Origin: Methanofastidiosum sp.
Lineage (GTDB): Archaea; Methanobacteriota_B; Thermococci; Methanofastidiosales; Methanofastidiosaceae
Reading direction: 5' to 3'
Assembly: GCA_013178285.1 (NCBI GenBank)
Contig: JABLXD010000012.1
Location: 5,174-69,173, forward strand
Length of the DNA stretch: 64,000 nucleotides
This document shows, piece by piece, positions 1 through 20,884 of this stretch; the stretch's first letter is position 1; each line of letters begins with the position of its first letter. The notes beneath the pieces are model-generated. The model worked only from the letters and a program-made list of their open reading frames with translations, was not told the DNA's origin and did no database searches. Made by a program: the position numbers and the translations under genes.

Positions 1-647
1 TCAACTAGTATTTCTCCATTGTCCATAATAACAAGCCTATCGCAGAGACGTGCAGCCTCTTCCATGTAGTGAGTTGTTATGATAACAGTTATCCCTTTTG
101 AGGAAAGATCCTTTAGTTTTTCCCAGATCAGATGCCTTGCCTGAGGGTCAAGGCCTGTAGTTGGCTCATCCAAAATCAATAGCTTGGGCTCATTGATCAT
201 TGCTCTTGCGAGTACAAGCCTTCTCTTCATCCCCCCAGAAAGCTTTTCAACAGAACTATCCTTTTTTTCTGTTAGTTGCACATACTCGATAAGTTCATTA
301 GCACGTTTCTTTGCTTCATCTATGGGTATGTCAAAATACCTGGAATACTGGATAAGGTTTCCAATAACTGAGAAATCCGGGTCAAGATTATCCATCTGAG
401 GAACGACGCCCATAAGCTTCTTTATTTCTTTTTGATTGCGTTCAACATCAAGGCCAAATACCTTTAATTCTCCACCCGTCTTCGGCGAAACACACTGGAT
501 CATCTTCATTGTTGTCGTTTTACCTGCCCCATTTGGTCCTAAAAAGCCAAAAACCTGCCCTTCATTTACCTTGAAATTGATCTTATTGACAGCTATAACA
601 TCACTGAATTTCTTTTCAAGATTTTTGGCCTCAAGGACTATAGTCAA
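1..647 (-). CDS. ABC transporter ATP-binding protein (ABC-2/CcmA-like); partial, C-terminus lies beyond the window start
   Basis: Reverse-strand translation from a TTG at 647 gives ...FGFLGPNGAGKTTTMKMI (Walker A), LSGGMKRRLVLARAM (ABC signature), LLILDEPTTGLD (Walker B), ITVIITTHYMEEAARLCDRLVIM. The ORF track misses it because it runs off the window edge and uses an alternative start. A stop lies just upstream of the TTG. Confidence 0.8.
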   Translation of the reverse strand, partial: MTIVLEAKNLEKKFSDVIAVNKINFKVNEGQVFGFLGPNGAGKTTTMKMIQCVSPKTGGELKVFGLDVERNQKEIKKLMGVVPQMDNLDPDFSVIGNLIQYSRYFDIPIDEAKKRANELIEYVQLTEKKDSSVEKLSGGMKRRLVLARAMINEPKLLILDEPTTGLDPQARHLIWEKLKDLSSKGITVIITTHYMEEAARLCDRLVIMDNGEILV

Positions 648-955
648 GTACTCACCAGTTGAAAAATTGTTCCTAATTATAAAAGTCTTTACTAATCGAT
701 TAATTTATATATTAGTTGTTCCAAACATTATATTGGGAGAAAAATGGCATCTATTGTGTACCTGTATATTGCAATAGCCAATTTTGTTTTGCTTCTAATT
801 GTTTATTCATCCCTTGTAAAAAATAAAAATAAAATCAAATATCTATACGCCCTTGGGATAACTGAAGTGCTGTGGGTAGTGTTATACATATTTCCTTTCA
901 GGAAATTCACATCTGACTTTGTTGACTGTATAATAAAATTACTTTAATTGATATT

Positions 956-1951
956 ATGCCGAGCTATTCTAACAACTGGAAGGTATGTCTAAAATTTAGC
1001 CCAGTTAGCAATCTTATCCTATCAAATAGTAAAGCGATAAACTATTTCACAAGGATAGAGTTGTTTGATGAAGATCCTGGAACTATTGAAGCGTTATGGG
1101 AACTTCCAGGTGCAGTATCCCTATTGAACAAACAACAGGAAGATGGATCGTGGAAATATTCTGGAGGTAAAGAGGAGATCCGCTCACAGATGAATTACAA
1201 TCAGCTTGAAACCTATCGAATAATGCGAGTTTTAATCGAAAAGTACGGCCTAAACAGCACAAATAATGCAATTTCAAGAGCCTGTGAATTTCTATTTTCA
1301 TTCCAAACTGACGAAGGGGATTTTAGAGGCATATACGGGAACGAATACACCCCAAATTACTCTGCAGGCATAATGGAGATGTTGATAAAGGCAGGCTATG
1401 GAAAAGATGACAGGATTGATCTTGGCATCAATTGGCTTTTGTCGATGAGGCAAAATGATGGGGGATGGGCCATACCTTTTAGGACTACAAAGTGCAAGAT
1501 ATCTGAAGTATTCTATAAAGATGAGAGAATTGAACCAATCAAAAATGATCCAACTAAGCCGTCTTCTCATTTAGTAACTGGGATAGTTTTAAGGGCCTTT
1601 GCAGCACATGGGCACTACAGAAAAACAAATGAAATAAGAAAAGCCGGAGCGTTTCTCAAATCACAATTTTTTAAGAAAGACAACTATAATGATCACGGCT
1701 CACCCGAGTACTGGGGGAAGCTAGCTTACCCTTTCTGGTGGACAGATATTGTTTCCTCTCTTGATTCCCTTTCCAAACTCAAATTTACTAAAGAAGACTA
1801 CGACGTCAAGAGGGGGCTAGATTATTTAATTGAAAATCAAAGACCTGATGGGACATGGAAAGTATATTATGGGCTTCCAAAGGACGATGAAAACGATTTA
1901 TGGATTACCCTGGCAATTTGCAGGTTATTTAAGAGATTTTATTCAATTTGA
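956..1951 (+). CDS. Prenyltransferase/squalene-oxidase (PFTB, alpha-alpha toroid) repeat protein, cytoplasmic
   Basis: 331-aa ORF with repeated Q/N-x-x-DG-[ST/G]-W motifs (QQEDGSWKY, QNDGGWAIPF, QRPDGTWKVY) typical of terpenoid cyclase / protein prenyltransferase beta-subunit repeats. No signal peptide. The exact start is uncertain. Confidence 0.5.
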   Translation: MPSYSNNWKVCLKFSPVSNLILSNSKAINYFTRIELFDEDPGTIEALWELPGAVSLLNKQQEDGSWKYSGGKEEIRSQMNYNQLETYRIMRVLIEKYGLNSTNNAISRACEFLFSFQTDEGDFRGIYGNEYTPNYSAGIMEMLIKAGYGKDDRIDLGINWLLSMRQNDGGWAIPFRTTKCKISEVFYKDERIEPIKNDPTKPSSHLVTGIVLRAFAAHGHYRKTNEIRKAGAFLKSQFFKKDNYNDHGSPEYWGKLAYPFWWTDIVSSLDSLSKLKFTKEDYDVKRGLDYLIENQRPDGTWKVYYGLPKDDENDLWITLAICRLFKRFYSI

Positions 1952-1999
1952 AAGAATCCGATAGTTTTAAATATCGATTACTATCATTAATTTGTAATA

Positions 2000-3256
2000 A
2001 TGGTGTCAATTATGAAAGGAAAAATTGCTATATTAATTTCTTTATTAATTGTTGTTTCTTTTATATCAGGATGTACGACTTCTGAGGTCTTTGTCAATAA
2101 TAGTGAATTCTACGGCTGCGTTCAAGAGCCTGTTGTAATGGATGAAGAACTGCAAAACGGGCTAAATCAAATATATGAAGGATACCTTGCTGAATGCCAG
2201 CAAGAATGCCCTACCTGCAACTGTGAAGCTGATGCAAAGATAGAAACTTTTATGGGATTAGCAGATGTATGGATACCGGGGCTATTAGGTAAGAGAGTAA
2301 CCCTACCATTTTCTTATAACATTGATAGGTGCTCACCTTCTCAGCATTATCGCCTTAATAATGCCGATTTAGGTATGGACATCAGAAAATGTCCTGAATT
2401 AACTATGAATATCAATGATTCTGGCCTTAGCATATATTCTTTACCTTATACATCATTCTTACCGTATGCCCTTGAATACATAGATATACCCATAACAGAG
2501 AATGGGTGTATTCCAACTTCCTTTAAAAATCAAAATCTTCCACCCAATAGCAAATGCCAACTAAAAGAAGATTATCTTTTGGTTATTACTTCAGAATCTC
2601 CAAACCTAATCCTTAACGGAAATGGAATAAAGCCACTGGAAGATGAAACTAGTAGTTACTATACATACATATTATATTTCTATTCAGGTTGGGACAAAGC
2701 TTTAATTGATGATTTTCTAGCAAATTATCCCTCGGGTCCATTCGATTTATCTGGAGTTTATGCCTATAACGAAATCCCTTCAAGTATCAATATTACATAC
2801 GATAAATGGGAAGGTCAGCCTACTACAAATGTATTTCTTTACAGAGAATGCTGCTGGCACTGTAATCCAAAACCTTCACTTCCTGCAACTATCCTTTATC
2901 CAAAAGTTGACATAGAAAGCTTTACATTAACTAACGGAGATGCAATTGTAAAAGATGGGAAGATAATCTCCTCATTTACTGTTGCGCCTGGAGTTCAAAA
3001 TACAACTATAGGTGTTGAGAACAGAGGATTCTTTACCCAAAACAACGTTTACATTAAGTTTGTCGGATTGCCAGAAGGGATAGAAGCCAGCACAATGCCA
3101 GAATTACAAAAGATTAAAGCACATAATATTGGCACCTATGAAACTACTTTTACCGTTGAACCAAATGTACCTTCAGGTACATACAAGATATCTCTGATCG
3201 CTTATTCTCAAAATGGAATACTTGATACAATAATCATGGATCTAGTAATTCCATAA
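2000..3256 (+). CDS. Cys-rich secreted lipoprotein (hypothetical), C-terminal beta-sandwich (CARDB/DUF11-like) region
   Basis: 418-aa ORF with N-terminal signal/TM followed by the lipobox-like ISGC. About 14 Cys, including CQQECPTCNCE and RECCWHCNP. C-terminal segments FTVAPGVQNTTIGVENRG and TFTVEPNVPSGTYKISLIAYS resemble archaeal surface-protein beta-sandwich repeats. Confidence 0.55.
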   Translation: MVSIMKGKIAILISLLIVVSFISGCTTSEVFVNNSEFYGCVQEPVVMDEELQNGLNQIYEGYLAECQQECPTCNCEADAKIETFMGLADVWIPGLLGKRVTLPFSYNIDRCSPSQHYRLNNADLGMDIRKCPELTMNINDSGLSIYSLPYTSFLPYALEYIDIPITENGCIPTSFKNQNLPPNSKCQLKEDYLLVITSESPNLILNGNGIKPLEDETSSYYTYILYFYSGWDKALIDDFLANYPSGPFDLSGVYAYNEIPSSINITYDKWEGQPTTNVFLYRECCWHCNPKPSLPATILYPKVDIESFTLTNGDAIVKDGKIISSFTVAPGVQNTTIGVENRGFFTQNNVYIKFVGLPEGIEASTMPELQKIKAHNIGTYETTFTVEPNVPSGTYKISLIAYSQNGILDTIIMDLVIP

Positions 3257-3316
3257 ATTTATTAATTTTTAATTTTTAAATTAAATATATATAGTAAAAG
3301 TTCCTAGATAGATTGG

Positions 3317-4750
3317 ATGATAAGAAATAAATTAATGGATATTGGGTTATACTCTCTTACCTTAAATCCCATAATTAAATATTCTATTAATCAAATAACA
3401 ACTAAGTGCGCCAAATGTAATAAAACAGTTTTAGAACAAATAATAAACAGTATAGAAACTGGAGAAGATCCTAAATTGTGCAATAGATGCTCTCTTTTAT
3501 TTCGACTTTACGTGCCATGGATTCCTATTTTACATCTTTTTGGTTTTGCAGTTAGCAGGGAGTCTTTTGAAAATGTTCCGACTTTTAATGAAGGATATTC
3601 ACTTAAGTCATATTCCTTGGGTGCCCATTCTTTCTTAAAAGGAGTGTCATCTTTTGGGTACAGGAAACCGTTGATATTTAATTCGCCAATATCTGTTGTT
3701 TTAGAATTAACTAGATTATGCAATCTTAATTGTAACTACTGTTATGTCAACACTTTTAATTCTGATTTAAATAAGCAAAAATATAACTTAGATTTATCAA
3801 CTGAGGAATGGTTTAAGGCAATAGATATTCTAAAAGAAACAGGAGTAGCTTCTCTTGTTTTTTCAGGAGGCGAACCATTAATTAGAGATGACTTTTTTAC
3901 AATTGCTAGTTATTCCAATAAACTGGGTTTTGCGACGTCTCTTGCAACAAATGGAACGCTATTAGATGAGGATATGGCTAAGAATATCAAAGAATCTGGA
4001 ATAAGCTATGTAGAAATAAGCATATTTAGTTCTATTGAAGAAACAAATGATGCCCACAGGAAAAATGATTCTTTTATGAAATCTATAAATGCTATTAAAT
4101 TCTGTAAAGAACAAGGTATTACAGTTGGCTTATCTCTGACTCTTACTAGCCTCGTAAAAGATGAGGTATCAAGCTTTTTAGAACTTGCAAAAAATACGGG
4201 CACTGATGTGTGTATATTCCTAAATTATGTCCCACATGGAAATGGAAATGACCCTCTGGCCCTAAATAATGGGGACAAAGAAAAAGTTCTAATTGAAATA
4301 TTAAACAAGCGCAATGAATATGATCAATACTTTAGAAAAATTGTAGTGCTACAAGCCCCAGAAATTTCTCAGCTCCATTTTGAAAAACAAAATAATAAAG
4401 AACTCATGCAGATTGGATTTACTAAATTTGATAAACCCGGATGGGGCAGATTTATAGAATATGTTGGGGGATGCTCTGCAGGAAGATTTCTTTTGGCAGT
4501 ATCTAATGAAGGAGCTATTATGCCCTGCCCTTTTCTTAGAATGGATTTGGGCAATGTTCTAGAAGTGGATCTTGATTCAATATGGAGAGATAACATTGCA
4601 TTGACTCAAATGAGAGACAGAAAAAGATGGGAAGGCAAGTGTGGAACTTGCAAATACAAAATAGTTTGTGGCGGATGCAGGGCTAGAGCCTATATTAACT
4701 CAAAAAACATACTTGCTGAAGATCCGTCCTGCTCTTATACCGGCTTTTAA
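3317..4750 (+). CDS. Radical SAM / SPASM-domain enzyme with N-terminal 4-Cys (rubredoxin/zinc-ribbon-like) module; tetraether-synthase(Tes/GDGT-MAS)-like or peptide/protein maturase
   Basis: CxxxCxxC radical SAM motif (LTRLCNLNCNYCYV) followed by GGEPL. A C-terminal SPASM-type Cys cluster (GGCSAGRF...MPCPF...CGTCKYKIVCGGCRARAY...DPSCSY). N-terminal CAKC...(x22)...CNRCS 4-Cys module. 477 aa. Confidence 0.85.
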   Translation: MIRNKLMDIGLYSLTLNPIIKYSINQITTKCAKCNKTVLEQIINSIETGEDPKLCNRCSLLFRLYVPWIPILHLFGFAVSRESFENVPTFNEGYSLKSYSLGAHSFLKGVSSFGYRKPLIFNSPISVVLELTRLCNLNCNYCYVNTFNSDLNKQKYNLDLSTEEWFKAIDILKETGVASLVFSGGEPLIRDDFFTIASYSNKLGFATSLATNGTLLDEDMAKNIKESGISYVEISIFSSIEETNDAHRKNDSFMKSINAIKFCKEQGITVGLSLTLTSLVKDEVSSFLELAKNTGTDVCIFLNYVPHGNGNDPLALNNGDKEKVLIEILNKRNEYDQYFRKIVVLQAPEISQLHFEKQNNKELMQIGFTKFDKPGWGRFIEYVGGCSAGRFLLAVSNEGAIMPCPFLRMDLGNVLEVDLDSIWRDNIALTQMRDRKRWEGKCGTCKYKIVCGGCRARAYINSKNILAEDPSCSYTGF

Positions 4751-5268
4751 CTCAATTAGGGCGGGCTATTCAACTAAAATACTCTATTCTAGAAACCCTC
4801 ATCACTCTATTTTTAAAAACCTCAAAAAATTCAAAAATTCAATTTTGTAACAATATATATTATTTATTATATATGATTAAATAATTATTGCATTTATTTT
4901 TAAAAATTTTAGGCTATACTAAAATTGCTATTTTTGAAAAATCAGCTTAAAAATTGCCTGAAGCCGAGCCATAAAAATTTCAAAAAATCATGAAAATAAC
5001 AATATATATGCCATATAATATATTTTTGAATAATTATTGCACTAATTAAAATTTTAGATATTCCTAATTTTAAATTATCTAAGGATCTTGAGATTGAAAC
5101 CCAATTACCATGTTTTTTTGTAGTTTCTTCTTGCAAAGCTACTCCATTGAACTCACTGTTTCCTAGTCGTATTTTACTTGTGCAAAGTACCCTAGTTTCT
5201 TTGAATAATCGAGTAACGTGAGAAAAATGCAAACACTCTGCTTTATATTCATATAATAACAATTAGCA

Positions 5269-5282
5269 TAAATTGCAATAAT
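5269..5282. promoter_or_regulatory. Palindromic motif copy (core AATTGCAAT; extended consensus ATAATTGCAATTAT), site 1 upstream of small gene 5489..5686
   Basis: Sequence taaattgcaataat. The 10-mer AATTGCAATT is its own reverse complement. One of six copies confined to 5269–7068. Confidence 0.5.
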
Positions 5283-5320
5283 TTTATAAAATTATATAAT
5301 ATAGAATATAATAATGAATA

Positions 5321-5334
5321 ATAATTGCAATTAC
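5321..5334. promoter_or_regulatory. Palindromic motif copy, site 2 (52 bp from site 1)
   Basis: Sequence ataattgcaattac. Centre-to-centre distance to site 1 is 52 bp. It lies about 160 bp upstream of the ATG at 5489. Confidence 0.5.
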
Positions 5335-5488
5335 CAATTAACATTAAGTTAAAGATTATTATTGAAATTGGATTACCAAAAATTTTTTACAGAATTTTTA
5401 AAATGAAAATGGAATCGGAATTCATTTACCAACTTTTTATAGGGGATAAAAATAAATACTTTGCCGCCCTAAGTAATAAGGTGAGAAT

Positions 5489-5686
5489 ATGGGATTAATG
5501 TCTTGGATAGATAAAAAATCAGGAAAATTAAGCGCCTGGGATATTGCATTTGTTAAAATTGGCGCAATGATCTTTGGCCTTATTATTGGAGCTTACTTCC
5601 CAGTTTTAATAAAACAATACGTTGTACTGCTTATAGTGCTTTTTATACTATTTTCCGCGAAACCTGTTTATGCTGCTTTCAAATAA
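5489..5686 (+). CDS. Small single-TM membrane protein (65 aa), paralog A
   Basis: MGLMSWIDKKSGKLSAWDIAFVKIGAMIFGLIIGAYFPVLIKQYVVLLIVLFILFSAKPVYAAFK. Clear paralog (about 50% identity by eye) of the 63-aa ORF at 6132..6323. Conservation of two copies argues both are real. Confidence 0.55.
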   Translation: MGLMSWIDKKSGKLSAWDIAFVKIGAMIFGLIIGAYFPVLIKQYVVLLIVLFILFSAKPVYAAFK

Positions 5687-5966
5687 ATTCACGGAAATAC
5701 TTTTTTATCCTATTACCCCGGGCTTATTTGAATAAAAAGAAGGACTTTAGATACCTTAATAATAAGTAAACTAGAGTATATCCTAATTGAATAACGCTGA
5801 AAATAACTGCGCGATCTTATGTCTAAAACCGCCTTTAGTTTGAGTCCTAATTATCCCTAAAAAGGTCCTAATATCGTCCTTTTTTAGCGAAATTTACGCG
5901 AAAACCGTCATTACTACGTATAATATACATTATACGCAATATTTGGATATAACTCAAGCACAAAAA

Positions 5967-6003
5967 GTAGGTCAAAAGTGGGTCGAAAGTAGGCCAAAAA
6001 GAG
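5967..6003. repeat. Three tandem imperfect ~12-nt units (AGTAGGTCAAAAGT / GGGTCGAAAGT / AGGCCAAAAAG) in a 445-bp non-coding spacer
   Basis: Read directly: gtaggtcaaaagtgggtcgaaagtaggccaaaaag, pattern RGGYCRAAARNG x3. Locally GC-richer than the surroundings. No ORF covers it. Confidence 0.4.
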
Positions 6004-6131
6004 CCTTTTTCCATATTTCTACCCATTTCGACTATAAACAAGATATTACCGTTTAACTATAAAAATCTTAGTATTACTAAAAAGCGCTTTTTTATTTGTT
6101 TAGGGTAGCTTAGATAAAAATAAAGTATGTT

Positions 6132-6323
6132 TTAGCGAAATGCATCATAGACGGGTTTTATTGAAAATAGCAAAGTAAGTATTATGAATACTATCAGATA
6201 CTGCCTCACAAAGGGAGATATGTAAGCACCGACAATAATCCCAAAAAACATTGCAGCAAACTTAACTAAGCCGATATCCCACACATTTAACTTCTTCCCT
6301 TTCTCATCGATATAGGAATCCAA
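6132..6323 (-). CDS. Small single-TM membrane protein (63 aa), paralog B
   Basis: MDSYIDEKGKKLNVWDIGLVKFAAMFFGIIVGAYISPFVRQYLIVFIILTLLFSIKPVYDAFR. Paralog of 5489..5686 and convergent with it. Confidence 0.55.
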   Translation of the reverse strand: MDSYIDEKGKKLNVWDIGLVKFAAMFFGIIVGAYISPFVRQYLIVFIILTLLFSIKPVYDAFR

Positions 6324-6421
6324 TCCCCTAAGATCGCCCCATCATATAAGAATCTTAACTATTTATATCTACCCGTTAAAACTTTGGGAATTGAATATCG
6401 ATTCCACTTCCAAACTTAAGA

Positions 6422-6435
6422 TAAATTGCAATAAA
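6422..6435. promoter_or_regulatory. Palindromic motif copy, site 3
   Basis: Sequence taaattgcaataaa, about 100 bp upstream of the minus-strand start at 6323. The flank is near-identical to site 1 (ataaattgcaataa). Confidence 0.5.
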
Positions 6436-6487
6436 TTTACATTATTATATTATTGAGTATATAATTTTAAATAATATTTGCAAAAGA

Positions 6488-6501
6488 TAAATTGCAATTA
6501 T
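6488..6501. promoter_or_regulatory. Palindromic motif copy, site 4
   Basis: Sequence taaattgcaattat, a near-perfect 14-bp palindrome. Confidence 0.5.
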
Positions 6502-6539
6502 CTTTCAATATAATATTATGCAAAATATATTTTTATAAA

Positions 6540-6553
6540 ATTATTGCAATTCT
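6540..6553. promoter_or_regulatory. Palindromic motif copy, site 5 (52 bp from site 4)
   Basis: Sequence tttattgcaattct with the palindromic core attgcaat. Overlaps the stop of the 108-aa ORF 6541..6867. Confidence 0.4.
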
Positions 6554-6867
6554 TCTTTGTTTTTATTTTCCCTATTCATCATGAAGGGCAAAGTAGTATA
6601 TGAGGTCGCTATTAATGCAATCCCGATTATCCCAATCACTCTCGCAATTGATACAGTATTCTCCCCAAGCAAAGCGCCATTAATCATCAAGAAAGCCCCT
6701 ATCAATGACAAGAAAAGCCCTATTATGAACTGGATAGCCGCCCTTTTCTTATGGATATTCCCTTTATTCTGGGCCGAAGATCTTTTTGGGCCAGTAAATG
6801 CCACAAAAAGCGCAAGAGCTAATAAAAGTACGCCTATAATAATTAGTATTATTGGCAGATTTACCAT
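6541..6867 (-). CDS. Small membrane protein (108 aa, 2–3 TM helices), hypothetical
   Basis: MVNLPIILIIIGVLLLALALFVAF...FIIGLFLSLIGAFLMINGALLG...IGIIGIALIATSY: coherent TM helices separated by a basic loop. The fully overlapping plus-strand ORF 6557..6871 is taken as its antisense shadow. Confidence 0.4.
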   Translation of the reverse strand: MVNLPIILIIIGVLLLALALFVAFTGPKRSSAQNKGNIHKKRAAIQFIIGLFLSLIGAFLMINGALLGENTVSIARVIGIIGIALIATSYTTLPFMMNRENKNKEELQ

Positions 6868-6967
6868 ATAAATTATATAAAATTGGCATATTTAAGTGTT
6901 TCGTTTATTAAATTATTTTGAAAAAAATTATATTTTAATGAATATTAATACATTAAATCAAAATATT

Positions 6968-7040
6968 GGTAATTCGTTACTAAATTCTATTGTCGAATTC
7001 ATTAAATTCAAATGCTGGTAATTCGTTACCAAATTCCATT
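6968..7040. promoter_or_regulatory. Pair of 24-bp direct repeats (GGTAATTCGTTACYAAATTCYATT) with 49-bp period, upstream of gene 7313..8140
   Basis: ggtaattcgttactaaattctatt at 6968–6991 and ggtaattcgttaccaaattccatt at 7017–7040 (22/24 identical). Confidence 0.45.
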
Positions 7041-7054
7041 TTAGAGCATAAAAA

Positions 7055-7068
7055 TAATTGCAATAATT
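7055..7068. promoter_or_regulatory. Palindromic motif copy, site 6
   Basis: Sequence ataattgcaataat, about 245 bp upstream of the ATG at 7313. Confidence 0.45.
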
Positions 7069-7312
7069 ATTATAATATATATCATATATAATATATATTG
7101 TTACAAAATTGAATTTTTGAATTTTTTCATGTTTTTAAAAATTGGTGATAGAGGAAATTTTAATTGAGTTTTGGCTGATTTAAGGGGCTAAAATGGAGAA
7201 GTTCGAATAGTATCGCCCAGGATATATGTTGTTATATCTGGATATTTTCAAAGAAATAGAAATCGACTATAAAATAGAATGATTTATCTATTAAACAAAT
7301 TATTGACTGTCG

Positions 7313-8140
7313 ATGGAAAATAATAAGATAATATTAATAGTATTACCATTTTTTTTAATTATCGGCACTTTATTTATTGTTCAGGTTAATAATTATAACC
7401 AGAACTTAGAAAAAGACTTAGTAAAAATAAATAGTTTTTATAGTATTAATAACGATTCATATTCAGAAGATTTAAGTTTCGATTATGACTATTATCAAAA
7501 GGATCCATATAATAAAAATATCTTTAATTCTAGTATAATCAGTTATAAATCTCTTCGCGTGAATTTTGGTAAAACTGAAACATCACTTATTCTTGAATTT
7601 CATACATTGAGAAAAGTAAAGGACAAATGGCTTTATTTATATATAAACAATTACTACTCATATTATTTTTTTGGAATAGATGAAATAAAATCTATAAAAA
7701 TAAAAAATAAAGAAGGGAAAGAAAAAACATATGACAAAGAAGATTTAGTAGATAAATGGTTTACAAATGGTAATCTAAAATTAGATCATGAAATGTTTAA
7801 TTCAGAATTCGACGAATATACAATAGAAATACTTATGGAACCTATGCCAATAAAAACAAATGAAATAATAATTCAGAATTGTATACGGGATATAAATTAT
7901 TATTTTGGGTGGAATGCTGATGAGTTTGTTTATATTAGTTCAAATGTTGGGAGAACGAACAACAATGTTATTTATTATTCACCAACAAATATTTCACCAA
8001 TGAATACAAAAATAGAAACTACCATAATTAGAGACAAAACAAAAAATGATTGGAACCTATATATCCAATTTCTAGCAAATGCTCTTGCATTTTCAGTTGT
8101 AATTGTTTCTGCAGGGAAGTATCTACTAGGAAAAAAATAA
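7313..8140 (+). CDS. Hypothetical membrane-anchored protein (N-terminal TM, C-terminal TM plus basic tail)
   Basis: 275-aa ORF with N-terminal IILIVLPFFLIIGTLFIV, an N/Y/K-rich body and a C-terminal FLANALAFSVVIVSAGKYLLGKK. No recognisable catalytic motif. Confidence 0.45.
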   Translation: MENNKIILIVLPFFLIIGTLFIVQVNNYNQNLEKDLVKINSFYSINNDSYSEDLSFDYDYYQKDPYNKNIFNSSIISYKSLRVNFGKTETSLILEFHTLRKVKDKWLYLYINNYYSYYFFGIDEIKSIKIKNKEGKEKTYDKEDLVDKWFTNGNLKLDHEMFNSEFDEYTIEILMEPMPIKTNEIIIQNCIRDINYYFGWNADEFVYISSNVGRTNNNVIYYSPTNISPMNTKIETTIIRDKTKNDWNLYIQFLANALAFSVVIVSAGKYLLGKK

Positions 8141-8184
8141 TAATGGTTAAGATTTTAGTTTAATTAGTAAAAATATAATTATCC

Positions 8185-8294
8185 AAAAATAAAGTCAATA
8201 AGGTTAAATAAAGGAGTGTAAAAAGATTAAAAGACTCTCCTTTTATTTACATCTTTTAGGCCTAGGGGCACGTTTATTTATTGACTTTATTTTT
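8185..8294. repeat. 110-bp structured element: perfect 17-bp inverted repeats (AAAAATAAAGTCAATAA / TTATTGACTTTATTTTT) enclosing an inner hairpin and a GGCCTAGG palindrome
   Basis: Left arm 8185–8201 and right arm 8278–8294 are exact reverse complements. Inner stem aaaggagtgt...actctcctttt at 8211–8244. ggcctagg at 8259–8266. Confidence 0.5.
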
Positions 8295-8462
8295 TTAATG
8301 GCCTATAAAAAGACCTAAAAATCATCTTTTGACGCCTTTAATGAATTCTTTATCTGTATGCGCTTGGCTCCTTAACAAGTGCGAGGGACTACAGTATTAC
8401 TCGAAAGAGTAGAGAGAAGAATTATTAAACTATTTAAATAAATAAACAAAATAATTATAAAA

Positions 8463-8801
8463 ATGATAGAAGGAATTATATTGGGAATAGGACTTCATGC
8501 AAAAGTAAAAGTAAAACAAAAAAGAATAAATAAAAAAAGACCTATTTTAGAATTGGAAGGAGGGCATGATCTTTTTAAAAAAGATAACAAGTGGAACTAT
8601 CTGACTAGAATTATTGATAGAGAAAATGATCATTATTTAGAAGTTATAAAAGATATAAAAACAGAGAAAATTATTAAAAAAGAAGATTGTAAACTTTCAG
8701 ATCATTACGGCCATGGCAGTGCCAAATGGAAAAAGAACAGATATAAGATACTTAGATTTTTTAAAACCATAATCTCATTTTTTAAAAGATTATTTGTCTG
8801 A
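8463..8801 (+). CDS. Hypothetical protein (112 aa), highly basic
   Basis: ORF only. K/R-rich, no motif recognised. Weak coding call in an AT-rich region. Confidence 0.3.
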   Translation: MIEGIILGIGLHAKVKVKQKRINKKRPILELEGGHDLFKKDNKWNYLTRIIDRENDHYLEVIKDIKTEKIIKKEDCKLSDHYGHGSAKWKKNRYKILRFFKTIISFFKRLFV

Positions 8802-9031
8802 TTCTTTAAGATTAGATAACGAAAAACAATATTTTTTTTATAATTCACTTTTTGAACTTCGTCAACAGCATGAATATAGACCCTAGTAGAGAAAATTAAT
8901 TACTAACTCCTCTAAATCCCCATTATTTTCCCTAACTACCCCGCCCTAAACAGCCACAAAATCATTTACGTATAATAATCCTATTTTAGTTAGAAGAAGG
9001 TATTTAAATAAAACGCCAATATATAAGGACG

Positions 9032-9289
9032 ATGACTACCAATGTAAGGCGTGTCTGGGATAAAATGGAATACGAAACTCCTAAGGCCTACGATGCATTT
9101 CTCTCCTATTGTGAGTTGGGCCCAAATAGAAGCCTATCAAAGTTGTCAAAGAATCTCAAGAAAAGCAAGTCGCTTCTCTCACGCTGGTCCGCTAGATATG
9201 ACTGGTTCTATAGGGCTTCCACATACGACAAGTACCTTCATGAAATGGTTATGAGAGAAGTTGCAATTATTTGGGCTATGGTCATTTGA
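9032..9289 (+). CDS. Hypothetical protein (85 aa)
   Basis: ORF MTTNVRRVWDKMEYETPKAYDAFLSYCELGPNRSLSKLSKNL... The composition is less AT-skewed than an intergenic shadow ORF would be. The overlapping frame 9051..9254 is rejected. Confidence 0.3.
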   Translation: MTTNVRRVWDKMEYETPKAYDAFLSYCELGPNRSLSKLSKNLKKSKSLLSRWSARYDWFYRASTYDKYLHEMVMREVAIIWAMVI

Positions 9290-9516
9290 GTATCTAATAT
9301 GCTCAATCTATTAACAAAAAAATAGTATGGCGCATATCTAAACAAAATTATAAAAGAAATAATCGTGAATAATCCAATAAATAAAGGAGTCTTATAATTA
9401 ATTTCCATTATTAGAAATCTCAAGTTGGAATATATAAATGTATATATAATGCGAGTTTATTTTGGTGAATTTCTCAATGAAAAAATATTTCCCTATTTGA
9501 AGAAAAATAAGTATAA

Positions 9517-10044
9517 TTATTTTTTAAAGAAATTTATTTTATCTCCTACTAATGAAACAATAAAAATAGAACTTAAGGTACCAATAAAAGCCGAAAATAA
9601 AATTCCTAAAAATAAGTTAATTCGATCTCTATTCTTATTATATAGAGATATGTCAGTAGTTTGAAAATTTTCATAATCAGCTATTTTGGCCCCACCAATT
9701 AAAGATTCTATATCATTTGATTTATTTCTCAATTCAAAATCAGAGTCCCATAAAATACTATAAGGATAATGATACGAAAATGCCCTCAAAAGATAATCTT
9801 TTTCTAAATCAAAATTCATATTTCTCTTAAATTTTATCTTAATATAAAGGTAAGAATAATTATTGGGATTAAATATATCTTGATTTAATTTTATATGTAT
9901 TGATGAATTATCAAATACAATTTTATCATTATTTATTTTGGAGGAATTATATATATTCTCATAAGCTATACTGAATGTGCGTTTTTCATAATTAGGATAA
10001 TAACGGTACACGTCAATGCTATCAATGTCTTTTGTATTTATCAA
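9517..10044 (-). CDS. Hypothetical protein with C-terminal TM anchor (175 aa)
   Basis: ORF only. C-terminal LFLGILFSAFIGTLSSIFIVSLVG. Confidence 0.35.
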   Translation of the reverse strand: MINTKDIDSIDVYRYYPNYEKRTFSIAYENIYNSSKINNDKIVFDNSSIHIKLNQDIFNPNNYSYLYIKIKFKRNMNFDLEKDYLLRAFSYHYPYSILWDSDFELRNKSNDIESLIGGAKIADYENFQTTDISLYNKNRDRINLFLGILFSAFIGTLSSIFIVSLVGDKINFFKK

Positions 10045-14179: not shown

Positions 14180-17100
14180 TTATATTGAATCCTTCTTCTT
14201 TCCCTTTATTACTTCTTTTGGATCAGGCACGGAATTAGAGTTATTAGAGGAGAATCGACGAATATTTTCTTCCTTTTTGCCTTTAATAACTTCCTTTATA
14301 TCTGGTACAGGAACATATGAATCATTTGAACTAGAAGGCCTTTTCTCTAATAATTCTTTAATTGAAGAGGGTATTTCGGGGGAGGTGTTGTTGTATCTAA
14401 AGTTGTTTGTCCAAGAGCTTCCCTTTTTACTTGATCCATTGTCGCCTTCTTTAAAGGGATTCTCTGGAGCACCGTTATTCTTCTTTTGTTTGAAGTCTTT
14501 GTATGCCCTTTCTACCGATGGAGGAAGATCTAGGTCGATATTTTTGGGAACCACTCTTCCTTTTATTTCTTTCAATTGCTCTTCTTCAAACTCAACATGT
14601 TTTTTATTTTCAATTTCGTTAATTTCATTTAATATTTTAGTCTGAAATTCGTCAAGTTCCTTTCTATCCATTAACTCTATATGACTAACATCCTCTGATT
14701 CAATTCTCTGCTCTGCTATTGCTATATTCTCTTTTCTTTTTTCAATTTCTTCTAAAGTTTTAGTAATTTCAGATCTTAATGATTCTATTTCAAAAGAATC
14801 AAGAGAGGCCAGCTTATCTTGATCCTGTAAAGTTGATTTTAATTCTTCTATATCTTTTCTAATCTCTTCCGGAGGGCCAAATTCTATCCTTGGGGGCCTT
14901 ATATTAATATCCTCTTCTGCTATTGGCATGACCTGTGGAGAATATTTCATTTCGGCCTTTGCATTGTTAATTTTAATTCCCTCTTTTTGTGAAGGTAGTT
15001 CTTTATTAATGACCCCTGCAGATTCCAATTCTTTTCTTAAAGATTCATTTTTTAGACCTTTGGATTCTTGAGATTCATATAAATGGGATAGGGAAAAAGG
15101 TTTCTTTTCTTGAGGTATGCCTTCTTTCTTCTTTGAAAATAATGAAAATTTACTCTTTTGTTTCTGTTTAATTGCAGGAGGCGCAACTTTTTTACCGAGT
15201 AATTCATGACCAATCTGATCTTTAGTTAGTATATTATCTTCACGTGTTGCAAACTCTTTAAACTTATTTTCAATTTCAAGACTTGGAGAGGGAGGTGGTT
15301 GCATTCTTTCTTTGGAGGGTATTTTTTCCTTCTTAGAAAACAGGTCAAAACTTTTCTTCTCTTTTTTAATGCCTCCATCTAGTGATTTAGATTGAGTTCC
15401 GAAGGGAGCTATTGGAGCCTGTTGTTCAGATTTAACAGATTTTTCTTTTTGTCTTGAGAAAACTCCAAATCCTTTTTCGGATTTAGTTGTTTTTTTCTTA
15501 ACTATCTCTGGGCCGGGAGGAGGTGTTCCACCTTTTTGGATCATAGATTTAGTAGATGGCCCTTTCGATCTGGTTGATCTATAGACCGAGTATCCTACTA
15601 CGGACAAAAGTAGTGCAATAATTGCAATTATAATATATGGCGCATATGGGGAAGACTTAATATCCTCTATTGTTTGAGTTACGGCTTGAGGGACACTTGG
15701 TACGCTAGATTGAGGAGCTACTTTTGCTTTAACACTGATTGCTGTTCTTTCAATATCAAAAGATTTTAACTCCTCAAAGGCGTTCATCCAGTAGAACTTT
15801 GAGTCTTCTAAGATAAAGGAGCCAGACTTTGTAGCTTTTATTTGTATTTCTTTTGATACCTCAGCCCCACCTTTAATTTCTTCAATTATAATTTCTTTAT
15901 CTCCAGAAATTATTTCAAATTCTGAAGGAAGTGCTTCAGCTATTTTAACTTCGTATATATCGTCCTTGCCCCAGTTTTTGATATTATATATAATTTTCAA
16001 TACTTCTCCTTCTTCAATTTCATTAGTAGAGATAGTTCTAGAAATTGAAGGTCCCCAAACTGTAACTAATGTAGGGGATAGAGATTTAGTTCCTTTGACG
16101 CCCCACTCGTCTTCATAAGTAGAAGCTGTTTGGCCAATCTGGTATTCTCCGCCTTGAGAAGGAACTAATGTGTATCTTAAAGTAACTCGCTCTTCTGGTT
16201 TCAGTTGGCCTCCCCAATAATTAATACCTGTTGTCAATTGAAGATTTGAAGGTATCCTGTCCTCGATTCTTACATTTTTAGCATCGCCATCGCCAGTATT
16301 AGTTATTATTGTTGTAACAGGGATGATATGCCCAATTCTAACAATATCCGATTCATATTCAGATTCTTGTCTAATCAACTGTATATTTGGAGTCCTTCCA
16401 CCAACAGTTATATTTGTAGATGCTTCAGATTTAGCCTTCTTCGCAGCAATATCTTCAAATTCTGATGAAGTATTGATAGTGAATATCTTATCCTTATTCT
16501 CTTGAAGAACTCTGACTGTGAATTTAGTTGTTTTGGAATCTCCTTGTTTTAAACTATCAACAAACCCTCCAAGTTCTCCGTCTACAAGCTCTATATCCCC
16601 AGAAATAGAGTTGATATAGCTTATTTTCTTTGCAAGACCATCTCCTGTGTTAGTTAAAGTTAGGACAACATCGACATACTTATAATCTGCAAAAGAATAA
16701 TCTTCATTGAAATATTGGATATTGGAAATTGTAATCTTAGGTTCTCCGTTTACTCTTACTGATGTACCTGATGCTATATGTTCAAAACTATGCCCTTCTA
16801 GATCATAATATAATAATTTAGTATCCCCAATTTTATATTCGCCTGGATACGACGCTGTTATGATATAATTATACATTTTTTCCTGTTCTGGTTTTAGTTC
16901 AGGAATTGTATATTCTATTCTTTTTATTTTAGGATTGTCAATCAATCTAAATCCTTCAGGGACATAATCAAGAACCTGCACATCTCTTGCAATTTTATTT
17001 CCAGTATTTCTTACAACTAGCACGACTATAACAGAATCTCCCCTAGATATGGTAACTCTATCCAATTTTTTAAGAATTTCAAGTCTAGGAAATTCCTTGC

Positions 17101-19123
17101 TTACGGTAACAGGCTCAATTTTAGAAGTTGTTTTGTATTTTTTCCCAGCTTCATCTTCAAAAAGTAGTTGAGTTTTAAATTCAAATTCTCCCATTTCTAA
17201 AGCTTTAACTTTGTAGATTAATGTAAATGTTTCATTTTTTGCCATTTTTGGAATATTTGTTGTTGCACTGCCATCAATTAACTCGAATCCGTCAGGAATA
17301 TAATCAATTAGATTTACTTTTGTGGCAGTTATATCTCCTATATTTTTAATTCTAACTTCAACGTCAGTAGTTTCTCCTACAAAAAGTTTTTCTTTTACAA
17401 TATTTCTTGTAATTTGAAATTCTGGTTGTTTTGGTACAATTGTAACTAATGTTTTATCACTTTTTGAATAATCTTGAATTACTTCCTGTTCTTTTTCATT
17501 AAAGTATCCCATTTGGTAGGATAAATCAATTTGGATTGGTGATACCTTTAGATAGTCAGTTTTTGGAGATTTAAATTTAAATACAATCAATCTTGTTTCA
17601 TCAGGTTCCATAGATTTTATTTCAAGGCATGCTTCATTGTCTGAACCACAATAACAATTGTTACCTGTTAAAAAAGTGAAATCTTTAGCTGTTATATGTA
17701 TTTTTACATTTTTTGCAGGTATATCCCCAGTATTTTGAATTTCAGTTACATACCAAAATGTTGTATCTGATTGAGGCTTTTCAATTTCATTTTCAGTTTC
17801 AAATTCAAAATCTTCAGGCCTCATTATTGAATGTATTATTGGAGTCCAAATTACTGTACCTCCACCCATCTCATAAATTGTTAGTTGTCTAATATTTTTA
17901 CAGGTACTATCTTTTCCGATAGTAACAATATCTCCCTGGCGCAATTCACCAAGTTGAACAAATGATCCATTTGTCTCTTCAAAGTTATAGACATATTGGA
18001 TATTTCCATTTATCATGGAAACATTGAAATTGTAAGTTTTTTCATCGAACTCGACAGAGCCGGAGCTTGCATTAATATCTACATCTCCTAAAAGAACAGT
18101 TTTAATCCCTTCCTTACTTCCTCTCAAGAAAGTTCTGTTGGTATCATCTATTTCTCCCCTATATAGTGTTGTTGAATTAATTGATAGTTCGGGTTCTTTT
18201 CTTTTAGTTACTGTTATGTTGAGTTTATATCTACCAAAGTAATTGGCATTTTCGTGATCATTAATTTCATTTACTTTAATTTTAAGAATTTCATCTATGT
18301 ATAATGTATCTCCCGGAACTACCACCTGCTGGATTACCAAGGTACCCTTTCGATAAACTTCTAGAATACCTCTTTCTGGAGGCATTACAGGATGCCTTCT
18401 TTGGAGATCTTTAAGCAATATTGTATAATCTCCTACAACTGTGAGATCTCCAATCTCTATCCATCCCATGAATACGGCATCGGGATCATAATAGGGCCCC
18501 GGTAAAAGGACAAAGTCTTGAGTAATAGTTCCAGAAGGATAAGGCACGTTGACACTTATTTTTTTAGGAAGCCATCCTACTCCAGAAGCTTCAATATCGT
18601 AGAGCCCCCCAAGACCGGAAAGTGAGTAATTACCATCAGTAGACGTTATAGAAGTTGCTAAAACATTTTCCGTTCCAGGATAGTAAGCATTTACAGTTGC
18701 ACCTTCAATTGGTGTTATGCCATCGGGCTGGAAAACATGTCCCACGACACTGCCATTTGTATCTTGGAGCGTTAAATTATAATCGGGCCCACAAGATGTG
18801 ATGCATGTATCTGCCAATGTAGAATTCGAAGTATAGCCCGGAGCATATGCCCTTATTATATACTTACCATGTTCTAATGGATATATATAAAATGTACCAT
18901 TTACATCTGTTGTTGTCATCCCTTTTATGGTGGGGCAAGCATTATTATCGTTAGCATAATGGGCATCAACGATTGCACCGCTGATTCCTTGTGGAGTTGC
19001 ATTAGTATCTGTTATTCGACCAGAAATTACGCCTTGCGCCAAAACTGGAGTTGCAACAACGCTGACCATGAATATCGATAATAAAAATATATTTAGTAAG
19101 TATAAATAATTGGATTTTTGCAT
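14180..19123 (-). CDS. Giant surface protein (1647 aa): signal peptide, carboxypeptidase-regulatory-like domains, multiple DUF11/CARDB-type repeats, one TM helix, ~500-aa K/E/S/P-rich coiled-coil cytoplasmic tail
   Basis: N-terminal MQKSNYLYLLNIFLLSIFMVSVVATPVLAQG. GVISGRITDT...GAIVDAHY and GSVVGHVFQPDG...GATVNAYY (CarboxypepD_reg-like). Repeated [IV]xNTG[DN]xxAKNV...[IV]P.GF units (TITNTGDGDAKNVRIEDRIPSNL, VRNTGNKIARDVQVLDYVPEGF, IKNIGDITATKVNLIDYIPDGF). TM YIIIAIIALLLSVVGYSVY. Tail with PPPGP and a heptad-like EIESLRSEITKTLEEIEKRKENIAIAEQRIE. Confidence 0.85.
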   Translation of the reverse strand: MQKSNYLYLLNIFLLSIFMVSVVATPVLAQGVISGRITDTNATPQGISGAIVDAHYANDNNACPTIKGMTTTDVNGTFYIYPLEHGKYIIRAYAPGYTSNSTLADTCITSCGPDYNLTLQDTNGSVVGHVFQPDGITPIEGATVNAYYPGTENVLATSITSTDGNYSLSGLGGLYDIEASGVGWLPKKISVNVPYPSGTITQDFVLLPGPYYDPDAVFMGWIEIGDLTVVGDYTILLKDLQRRHPVMPPERGILEVYRKGTLVIQQVVVPGDTLYIDEILKIKVNEINDHENANYFGRYKLNITVTKRKEPELSINSTTLYRGEIDDTNRTFLRGSKEGIKTVLLGDVDINASSGSVEFDEKTYNFNVSMINGNIQYVYNFEETNGSFVQLGELRQGDIVTIGKDSTCKNIRQLTIYEMGGGTVIWTPIIHSIMRPEDFEFETENEIEKPQSDTTFWYVTEIQNTGDIPAKNVKIHITAKDFTFLTGNNCYCGSDNEACLEIKSMEPDETRLIVFKFKSPKTDYLKVSPIQIDLSYQMGYFNEKEQEVIQDYSKSDKTLVTIVPKQPEFQITRNIVKEKLFVGETTDVEVRIKNIGDITATKVNLIDYIPDGFELIDGSATTNIPKMAKNETFTLIYKVKALEMGEFEFKTQLLFEDEAGKKYKTTSKIEPVTVSKEFPRLEILKKLDRVTISRGDSVIVVLVVRNTGNKIARDVQVLDYVPEGFRLIDNPKIKRIEYTIPELKPEQEKMYNYIITASYPGEYKIGDTKLLYYDLEGHSFEHIASGTSVRVNGEPKITISNIQYFNEDYSFADYKYVDVVLTLTNTGDGLAKKISYINSISGDIELVDGELGGFVDSLKQGDSKTTKFTVRVLQENKDKIFTINTSSEFEDIAAKKAKSEASTNITVGGRTPNIQLIRQESEYESDIVRIGHIIPVTTIITNTGDGDAKNVRIEDRIPSNLQLTTGINYWGGQLKPEERVTLRYTLVPSQGGEYQIGQTASTYEDEWGVKGTKSLSPTLVTVWGPSISRTISTNEIEEGEVLKIIYNIKNWGKDDIYEVKIAEALPSEFEIISGDKEIIIEEIKGGAEVSKEIQIKATKSGSFILEDSKFYWMNAFEELKSFDIERTAISVKAKVAPQSSVPSVPQAVTQTIEDIKSSPYAPYIIIAIIALLLSVVGYSVYRSTRSKGPSTKSMIQKGGTPPPGPEIVKKKTTKSEKGFGVFSRQKEKSVKSEQQAPIAPFGTQSKSLDGGIKKEKKSFDLFSKKEKIPSKERMQPPPSPSLEIENKFKEFATREDNILTKDQIGHELLGKKVAPPAIKQKQKSKFSLFSKKKEGIPQEKKPFSLSHLYESQESKGLKNESLRKELESAGVINKELPSQKEGIKINNAKAEMKYSPQVMPIAEEDINIRPPRIEFGPPEEIRKDIEELKSTLQDQDKLASLDSFEIESLRSEITKTLEEIEKRKENIAIAEQRIESEDVSHIELMDRKELDEFQTKILNEINEIENKKHVEFEEEQLKEIKGRVVPKNIDLDLPPSVERAYKDFKQKKNNGAPENPFKEGDNGSSKKGSSWTNNFRYNNTSPEIPSSIKELLEKRPSSSNDSYVPVPDIKEVIKGKKEENIRRFSSNNSNSVPDPKEVIKGKKKDSI

Positions 19124-20386: not shown

Positions 20387-20884
20387 ATGATAAAAAATAA
20401 TATAATTCAAAAATATGGCGAAGAAAATTATATCAAGTTATTATTTTTTATCAAAGGGGCGTTAATATCTATATTTCTTTATGTTATAAGTGATTATACC
20501 CCCATTAGAATATTTACTGCGCAGGCTGTTAAAGAAGGGATAACTTTTTTTGATATACAAAAGCCACTAATTATATCTGGTAAATTTGTGGCCGTTGGAA
20601 ATTATGAGATATCTAAACGATGTATTGGATTGGCTTCAGGGGCTATATTTACTGCTTTATTTATTTTATCTTCTTTTAAACTAGTCAAAAAGATCATATA
20701 CTTATCACTATTCCTTATAAGTCTATTATTCCTTAATATATTAAGATTGATAATAACAATATATCTTTTCGAACAAGGTTACACCTGGCTTATTGCCCAT
20801 GACATATTAGCTTATGTTCTTGGGATTGGTTTTTCATTTCTTGTTCTAATAAGAATTAATCCTTACATACCATTATTTAGATAA
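20387..20884 (+). CDS. Minimal archaeosortase/exosortase-family protein (short form, ArtE-like) - tentative
   Basis: 165-aa polytopic membrane protein with Cys79 (SKRCIGLASG), Arg121 in an N-x-x-R context (LNILRLII) and Arg159 (LIRINP). The Cys-Arg-Arg spacing (about 41 and 38 aa) mirrors the catalytic C/R/R spacing of archaeosortase A. Confidence 0.45.
   Translation: MIKNNIIQKYGEENYIKLLFFIKGALISIFLYVISDYTPIRIFTAQAVKEGITFFDIQKPLIISGKFVAVGNYEISKRCIGLASGAIFTALFILSSFKLVKKIIYLSLFLISLLFLNILRLIITIYLFEQGYTWLIAHDILAYVLGIGFSFLVLIRINPYIPLFR

Follow-up and report, generated by a model that had tools for sequence, protein, structure and literature searches.

Introduction

Radical S-adenosylmethionine (SAM) enzymes carrying a SPASM domain are found in pathways leading to modified lipids, tetrapyrroles, peptides and proteins. 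Regarding lipids, two papers of 2024 have described the combination of an AhbD-like core, an N-terminal extension and a SPASM domain as the hallmark of Gms, the synthase of glycerol monoalkyl glycerol tetraethers (GMGTs), which bridges the two biphytanyl chains present in glycerol dialkyl glycerol tetraethers (GDGTs) (PMC11214058, PMC11186832). According to Garcia et al. (2024), Gms differs from its homologue AhbD by an N-terminal extension of 100 aa (COG4001), which forms a hydrophobic pocket for the lipid (PMC11214058). In the present work, we analyzed a DNA stretch of 64,000 nucleotides from Methanofastidiosum sp. (assembly GCA_013178285.1, contig JABLXD010000012.1, positions 5,174 to 69,173 of the forward strand), hereafter the window, in which three long open reading frames (ORFs) of the plus strand, named here genes A, B and C, occupy positions 956-4750 with spacers of 48 nt (A-B) and 60 nt (B-C). 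Gene C (3317-4750, 477 aa) encodes a radical SAM/SPASM enzyme, gene B (2000-3256, 418 aa; the public annotation begins at the ATG at 2012) a secreted lipoprotein and gene A (956-1951, 331 aa) an alpha/alpha toroid protein. An earlier note, made from the sequence of the window, had delimited these three co-directional genes with coordinates that proved exact, and its domain calls hold as well (cyclase domains of Pfam in A, signal peptide and lipobox in B, Radical_SAM and SPASM in C). As a public Candidatus Methanofastidiosum metagenome-assembled genome (MAG; contig of 85.9 kb) matches A, B and C at 100% and many homologues exist, the three are genuine genes.

While the earlier note had proposed that C matures the cysteine-rich protein B, we consider it moderately probable, from sequence comparisons, that C is a lipid-modifying paralogue of Gms whose neighbors are not proven partners. 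As in the characterized Gms proteins (M. okinawensis METOK_RS04425, T. guaymasensis X802_RS00105 and P. furiosus PF0647), an N-terminal helical domain of ~100-120 aa precedes an AhbD-like radical SAM core, itself followed by a SPASM domain that has its full set of cysteines; the N-terminal cysteine pairs are conserved with canonical Gms-like proteins and the host is a strictly anaerobic archaeon, as for all Gms homologues. Unlike canonical Gms, C is found in a separate and well-supported sister subfamily marked by indels of its own and the motif 'IGFTKF', the helix of its N-terminal domain is more hydrophobic and its gene does not adjoin gmm, grs or tes. AhbD, AhbC and NirJ, which provide the best-scoring profiles for the core of C and have the same SPASM cysteine pattern, are devoid of the N-terminal domain, stand apart from the C subfamily in the core tree and have profile cut-offs that C misses. 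Radical SAM and SPASM chemistry is also common to C and to anSME, QhpD, SkfB, PqqE and TIGR04133, and in the QhpD/QhpC and TIGR04133 ('rSAM with lipoprotein') pairings a Cys-rich exported protein is likewise encoded next door. However, unlike these protein- and peptide-modifying SPASM enzymes, C has no RRE-type domain and its similarity to them is restricted to the core, while the candidate substrate, B, is a 418-aa Sec lipoprotein and neither a short precursor nor a signal-less subunit.

Gene C as a putative sister of the GMGT synthases

Searches against Pfam assigned to C a Radical_SAM domain (4.7e-27) and a SPASM domain (1.3e-7, residues 386-446). The radical SAM motif, C135-x3-C139-x2-C142 (window positions 3719-3742, plus strand), is invariant in the family alignment, and the seven cysteines of the SPASM region (386, 404, 442, 445, 451, 454 and 472; 4472-4732, plus strand), which are predicted to be the ligands of two auxiliary [4Fe-4S] clusters, are invariant or nearly so. 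Residues 1-120 (3317-3676, plus strand) form an N-terminal domain that resembles the Gms-type ('COG4001'-like) extension. It carries two cysteine pairs, C31xxC34 and C55xxC58, as well as a hydrophobic helix (residues 61-79, hydropathy 1.54). In an alignment of 15 family members, among them proteins from Archaeoglobus and Methanopyrus, all four cysteines are fully or almost fully conserved. No Pfam domain was found in residues 1-125, but a hidden Markov model (HMM) built from 90 canonical Gms-like N-termini, from which the subfamily of C itself (subfamily 1, see below) had been excluded, matched residues 16-120 with 41.7 bits (E 7e-9).

Among curated profiles, the highest scores of C were obtained with AhbD (209.6 bits, 8e-62), NirJ2 and TIGR04053, all three below half of their cut-offs, and full-length homologues from Archaeoglobus and Methanopyrus returned the same three profiles in the same order. 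The AhbD/NirJ equivalog cut-offs were missed by a wide range (TIGR04545, 209.6 for a cut-off of 500; TIGR04051, 185.1 for 515; TIGR04055, 195.7 for 500). The maturase models likewise all remained below cut-off and scored below AhbD/NirJ (PqqE, 125 for 381; TIGR04133, 87.6 for 425; StsB, 91 for 625), and the best match in the PDB, SkfB (65 bits), covered the core only. We also considered and rejected an identity of C with Tes or GDGT-MAS, MJ0619 (PDB 7TOL) being matched with 40.7 bits (E 1e-9) over residues 125-306 of the radical SAM core only.

Proteins of the C type are already present in a published inventory. The Source Data of Li et al. (2024), who defined Gms homologues by E < 1e-50, > 30% identity and > 420 aa, list NYT04340.1 (E 9e-58, 33% identity, 477 aa) and KYC46914.1 (E 1e-57, 32% identity, 477 aa). 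The first is in the same 90% cluster as C of the window and the second corresponds to P0006, a protein 78% identical to C; orthologues of C thus pass the published criteria and, because they are already in that list, gene C itself is not new. The same Source Data contain a closer Gms homologue from Methanofastidiosum sp., NPV49862.1, with 43% identity to MoGms (2e-113).

Those among the top 120 matches of C that are full-length (>= 420 aa) separated on clustering into a canonical Gms-like cluster of 90 sequences (~444-502 aa), with named members in Bathyarchaeia, Archaeoglobus, Methanopyrus, Thermoplasmatota and other groups, and a subfamily 1 of 23 sequences, which contains C and its orthologues, paralogues with 47-49% identity to C, and proteins from Methylarchaceae and other uncultured archaea. 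Most members of the canonical cluster align over ~93-98% of C, N-terminus included. In a neighbor-joining tree restricted to the catalytic core, the sequences of subfamily 1 were monophyletic in 100 of 100 bootstraps and the canonical cluster in 95 of 100, and both together were set apart from the short AhbD/NirJ-like proteins in 91 of 100. On the grounds of the N-domain HMM match, the clustering and the core tree, C is predicted to be a member of the Gms superfamily and to belong to a divergent sister subfamily. Since a closer Gms homologue is listed for Methanofastidiosum sp., the substrate or the regiochemistry of C probably differs from that of canonical Gms. The earlier note had named a grouping of the radical SAM enzyme with lipid-modifying enzymes as the outcome that would speak against its own proposal, and C does group in this way.

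By analogy with the family, an isoprenoid lipid chain would be held in a hydrophobic pocket of the N-terminal domain of C while SAM would be reductively cleaved at the cluster bound by C135, C139 and C142. A hydrogen atom would then be abstracted from an unactivated carbon of the isoprenoid chain, and the auxiliary clusters of the SPASM domain might assist C-C coupling or a related modification of the lipid tail.

Several points weigh against C being a lipid-modifying Gms paralogue. Its identity to canonical Gms is only ~31-33%, at the weak end of the list of Li et al. (2024), and its orthologues (~1e-57) probably miss the cut-off of 1e-80 used by Garcia et al. (PMC11214058). The comparison of C with Gms was made through the published table and through canonical sequences that stand in for verified Gms, and the tree is a neighbor-joining one with an outgroup drawn from metagenomic loci. 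That NPV49862.1 derives from the same MAG as C we infer solely from the nearness of accession numbers. Finally, a purely lipid role accounts neither for the tight co-inheritance of B and C nor for the presence of B-family genes near a paralogous radical SAM gene, genes for B-family proteins with 31 cysteines being located within two genes of this paralogue in three loci (L001-L003).

Gene neighborhoods of C and its paralogues

The order A-B-C was found in at least four Methanofastidiosum contigs, namely L004 (the window's own region in a second assembly), L005, L006 and L088, and, among 81 A loci, in Methanofastidiosum only. A further locus, L008, encodes an A protein with 73% identity in the order ABC exporter, A, small transmembrane gene, DUF1801 gene and gene for a 108-aa transmembrane protein; between these otherwise syntenic flanks neither B nor C, nor remnants of either, nor the 67-aa ORF that precedes A in the window were found. 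Because L008 keeps the flanks without B, C or their remnants, the two genes appear to have been gained or lost together as a two-gene indel, while A stays in place. The co-localization in related genomes that the earlier note had asked about is thus verified, with B and C being jointly absent from L008. The L008 contig carries, elsewhere, a C paralogue of the 47-49% type.

Small ORF, A, B and C follow each other behind a UvrA-like gene in L005 and behind an ABC exporter in the window, L006 and L088, and the occurrence of the small ORF tracks that of B and C wherever visible. In L010, the small ORF and A lie behind yet another neighbor and the contig ends directly after A. Across the 81 A loci, no neighbor of A is conserved between lineages and only lineage-specific synteny was observed (e.g., blocks in Methanobacterium and Lokiarchaeia). 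No link of A with C was seen outside Methanofastidiosum. A metagenome scan with the subfamily-1 alignment, which also supplied the outgroup of the core tree, returned mostly AhbD/NirJ-like genes and L088 as the sole C-type locus. The locus is a lineage-restricted arrangement in Candidatus Methanofastidiosum and not a demonstrated three-part system. The earlier note was right that the cluster is not a named system, PADLOC and NCBIfam having yielded no match to it; an anti-phage defence system was likewise rejected, as PADLOC gave generic viperin-core matches for C and none for A, B or the 67-aa ORF.

The C paralogues with 47-49% identity (P0012 and P0013; 466-497 aa) have a different context. 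Their genes overlap convergently with a gene for a CDP-alcohol phosphatidyltransferase (364-373 aa), a family of lipid head-group enzymes, the pairs being located at 8001-10608 in L001, 8001-10465 in L002 and 4003-6467 in L003. The B-family genes found nearby are either on the opposite strand or separated from the paralogue by opposite-strand genes, and in L002 and L003 a URO-D family gene is located three genes 5' of the paralogue. Three other subfamily-1 radical SAM loci, L085 (Methylarchaceae), L086 and L087, have no B-family gene and no Cys-rich secreted neighbor.

Two side observations were made in these loci. A second radical SAM gene of ~343 codons directly adjoins the Gms-like gene in L086 (4881-5909) and L087 (7468-8502); with their similar N-termini, KPIILTHSVT and RPILLTHSLT, respectively, the encoded proteins may be a conserved partner of the Gms-like enzyme. 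In L085, a gene for a 519-aa type I phosphodiesterase/nucleotide pyrophosphatase of the alkaline-phosphatase superfamily (4309-5868) is located directly before the subfamily-1 radical SAM gene.

The toroid protein A

Protein A matched SQHop_cyclase_C (5e-14) and SQHop_cyclase_N (4e-6) in Pfam. The earlier note had pointed to PF00432 for A as well as to the Radical_SAM and SPASM profiles for C; a Radical_SAM and a SPASM domain are present in C, and PF00432 itself had no Pfam match in A. The most hydrophobic 19-residue stretch of A has a mean Kyte-Doolittle value of just 0.86, and therefore no signal peptide is present. A is a cytoplasmic single-domain alpha/alpha toroid of the squalene-cyclase/PFTB repeat superfamily, with four QW-like repeats and an AlphaFold2 model that is an all-helical single toroid (pLDDT 92). 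The nearest structures in the PDB, drimenyl-PP synthase, SHC, MstE and complement TED, have TM-scores of only ~0.45. The alpha/alpha toroid and QW-like repeats are common to A and to class II terpene cyclases (SHC, drimenyl-PP synthase and the monodomain MstE; 12-16% identity). In contrast to these enzymes, A consists of one 331-aa domain without the DxDD/DxDTA acid, it scores far under the NCBIfam cyclase cut-offs (49 for 431 and 48 for 323), and its invariant residues are different ones (EGDFRG, H205, H218, D264 and D270). Pattern searches found no DxDD, DxDTA or DxD[ST]A motif in A, and none occurs among the invariant columns of 52 homologues.

Members of the A family from different archaeal phyla and from some bacteria share 50-58% identity. 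When its alignment was scanned against 185,579 species genomes, 212 relatives were obtained, of which the best 80 loci were kept. At ~47-56% identity, they are spread over archaea (Methanobacterium with cultured species among its members, Bathyarchaeia, numerous Asgard lineages, Methanomassiliicoccales and Nitrosopolaris) and bacteria (Chloroflexota, Actinomycetota and Anaeromyxobacter). The homologues in bacterial MAGs have 44-54% identity (Anaerolineae, Chloroflexia, Solirubrobacteraceae, Actinomycetota, Anaeromyxobacter and Alphaproteobacteria; loci L027, L034, L039, L054, L058, L066, L072, L073, L080 and L083). Such conservation, which is unusually strong for a protein without assigned function, would imply interdomain transfer. 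A literature search on the A family found no relevant paper. At this locus, A is at most an isoprenoid-binding partner.

The lipoprotein B and its family

The N-terminus of B, MVSIMKGKIAILISLLIVVSFISGC25, combines a signal peptide (hydropathy 2.4) with the lipobox I-S-G-C25, which conforms to the pattern [LVI][ASTVI][GAS]C; orthologues and sister subfamilies keep ISGC, LSGC, FSAC or FAGC at this place. B is thus a predicted surface lipoprotein, its lipidation being deduced from the lipobox. The lipobox and the CC/CxxC-like clusters described by the earlier note are indeed present, with a total of 13 cysteines instead of about 14: C25 and 12 others, including C66xxxC70xxC73xC75 and C284-C285-x-x-C288. 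A Cys-rich N-terminal domain without known relatives is followed by a C-terminal Ig-like beta-sandwich (~residues 292-418, window 2873-3256), and no match to B was found in Pfam, NCBIfam or the PDB sequences.

B in the strict sense (55-100% identity) has 13 cysteines in nearly all members and always the lipobox. Beyond these, over 100 secreted proteins match B in the C-terminal 125-240 residues alone (40-63% identity), and all named members of this wider family are from Methanofastidiosum or Methanofastidiosa. Their N-terminal domains are variable, with 6-45 cysteines, and the proteins reach 1368 aa (among P0122-P0470); in most matches that contain it, the conserved C-terminal domain reaches the C-terminus or stops at most a few residues short of it. 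The B-family profile retrieved 68 clusters only from 1.84 billion representatives, and no B-family member had a match in Pfam. We conclude that B is most simply read as belonging to a narrow family of secreted cell-surface proteins found mainly in Methanofastidiosum, and its C-terminal domain, for which Pfam has no model, looks like an anchoring or sorting module. In both other B-family neighborhoods retrieved (P0172 and P0158), the gene is located among other surface-protein genes, far from any radical SAM gene.

Alternative functions of the locus

Considering the four genes as a whole, the 67-aa membrane protein, A, B and C might form one envelope or isoprenoid-lipid remodelling module, which we regard as unlikely. 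In such a module, the polyprenyl or biphytanyl chain bound or processed by A would be cross-linked or modified by C, with the small membrane protein as a tether; the target would be the anchor of the surface lipoprotein B or the membrane around it. The terpenoid-cyclase/prenyltransferase fold of A and the lipid-tail-modifying type of C would both fit isoprenoid chemistry, and it is consistent with a module that the four genes have the same order in L005, where another gene precedes them, and that the small ORF is present wherever B and C are seen and missing in L008. However, A occurs in at least 75 loci of other archaea and bacteria without a Gms-like neighbor, and L008 retains it without B, C and the small ORF; moreover, A does not have the DxDD catalytic acid, the lipobox is the sole tie of B to lipids, and all this evidence is synteny within one genus.

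The proposal of the earlier note, in its most explicit form, is that C is a protein maturase that would install thioether or other cross-links on the cysteines or neighboring residues of B before export. The divergent Gms-like subfamily would then have been recruited from lipid to protein substrates. SPASM enzymes acting on whole proteins do exist, as exemplified by anSME and QhpD. In its favor, B is located directly 5' of C in all four C-type loci (L004, L005, L006 and L088), four more B-C pairs are hinted at by contigs of equal length (P0002/P0122, P0005/P0127, P0008/P0131 and P0018/P0126), both genes are jointly missing from the syntenic L008, and the 47-49% paralogues likewise have genes for Cys-rich B-family proteins within two genes. 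A link between B and C is therefore possible, albeit with a low probability, because the two genes behave as one indel and the paralogous radical SAM gene has B-family neighbors. Nevertheless, we consider the maturation of B by C doubtful. The N-terminal domain of C is of the Gms type, and not RRE- or PqqD-like; orthologues of C are in the published Gms list, its core is sister to the canonical clade, and all peptide and protein maturase models stay far under their cut-offs and under AhbD/NirJ, with SkfB covering the core only. The Sec-type signal peptide of B would entail export in an unfolded state, a poor fit with cross-linking in the cytoplasm. Regarding the genomic evidence, the B-family genes by the C paralogue are on the opposite strand or interrupted and thus not co-transcribed with it, P0172 and P0158 are remote from radical SAM genes, L085-L087 are without a Cys-rich secreted neighbor, the paralogue adjoins the gene of a lipid head-group enzyme, and separate transcription of B and C is suggested by T-runs and TATA-like boxes between the two genes (see below).

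A related scenario, to which we assign a similarly small probability, is that the sister subfamily no longer acts on free membrane lipids and has acquired a protein-linked target, which could be the Cys-rich domain of B and its paralogues, to be cross-linked, or an isoprenoid anchor of the lipoprotein. Finally, it is very improbable that C acts on tetrapyrroles in the manner of AhbC, AhbD or NirJ (decarboxylating or removing side chains, for a haem or haem-d1-like cofactor): although AhbD (8e-62), NirJ2, NirJ and AhbC are its highest curated models and a URO-D family gene accompanies the paralogue in L002 and L003, C scores below half of every equivalog cut-off (209.6 for 500 in the best case), carries an N-terminal extension absent from AhbD, is parted from the short AhbD/NirJ-like proteins in the core tree (91/100) and has no other Ahb or Nir gene in its neighborhood. 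The reading of C as a lipid-modifying Gms paralogue is thus the one that we retain.

Layout of the locus and flanking genes

The inventory of the cluster given in the earlier note, A, B and C, is correct as far as it goes and overlooked a fourth ORF of 67 aa (744-947, plus strand), which ends 8 nt before A and encodes two predicted hydrophobic helices (mean Kyte-Doolittle value of 2.5 for residues 2-20). This ORF is missing from the called genes of the public contig, where it is unannotated. It is kept directly 5' of A in L005, L006, L088 and L010 (63-90% identity) and was not found upstream of A in L007, L008 and L009. Further 5', the divergent ABC exporter ATPase gene reported in the earlier note is confirmed at 1-647 on the minus strand; the gene, of the ABC-2 exporter type and with the Walker A motif GPNGAGKTT, runs off the window start, so that its 5' part is covered, and its TTG start codon at 647 was placed by homology to MTIVLEAKN of L008. 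The gene of an ABC-2 permease lies beyond the ATPase gene, outside the window (ABC_tran and ABC2_membrane were called on the L004 contig). In L004, a longer copy of the region, trehalose and glycolysis genes come after the permease gene, and the same ATPase/permease pair is located 5' of A in L004, L006-L009 and L088.

As for transcription signals, TATA-like boxes, read by eye from the sequence, are present at 1965-1974 (ttttaaatat) and 3266-3293 (ttaaatatatata), 24-36 nt 5' of the respective start codons (B and C), and two T5 runs occur in the B-C spacer after the stop codon of B. These elements suggest separate promoters and separate transcription of B and C, an indication of low weight given the AT-rich genome. 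A promoter and terminator scan yielded counts equal to those of shuffled sequences, its consensus being that of sigma-70, which is unsuited to archaea.

The tract that follows C (4750-7300) is AT-rich (GC 24-33%), and the earlier note had taken it for a gene-poor accessory region. This view is not supported, as three small membrane-protein genes are located there: one at 5489-5686 (plus strand), with homologues in related genomes; its paralogue within the window at 6132-6323 (minus strand); and one for a 108-aa protein at 6541-6867 (minus strand), also with homologues in related genomes. The first two ORFs, of 63-65 aa and in opposite orientation, are 53% identical to each other. Because homologues of the 5489-5686 ORF and of the 108-aa ORF occur in L006, L008 and/or L088, the tract seems to be syntenic and is not obviously accessory. 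An Rfam scan of window positions 1-10000 (E <= 0.1) detected no RNA elements.

Other genes of potential interest are found further away in the window. A 1647-aa DUF11/CARDB surface protein is encoded at 14180-19123 (minus strand), a short archaeosortase/exosortase-like membrane protein at 20387-20884 (plus strand), and a PcrB-family protein (geranylgeranylglyceryl phosphate synthase, archaeal lipid backbone synthesis) at 22248-23006 (minus strand).

Significance

GMGTs, the 'H-shaped' tetraethers, serve as biomarkers for warm and for anoxic environments, and gms homologues are taken to indicate the organisms that produce them. What is new at this locus is that C belongs to a distinct sister subfamily, next to which a closer Gms homologue is listed for Methanofastidiosum and a third paralogue type occurs, and that its gene travels with that of a lipoprotein. 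The locus thereby suggests that Methanofastidiosum has up to three paralogue types of the Gms family. Moreover, a whole sister subfamily passes the looser of the published thresholds while having, probably, another substrate or product, which bears on the reading of gms-like genes as GMGT potential. The wider payoff is modest, the cluster being confined to one uncultured genus. Nonetheless, gene C provides a lead to an uncharacterized modification of lipid tails or, less likely, of a protein. Were its target to be protein-linked, C would be the first protein-directed member of the clade of radical SAM enzymes acting on lipid tails and would reveal a new kind of archaeal surface-protein maturation.

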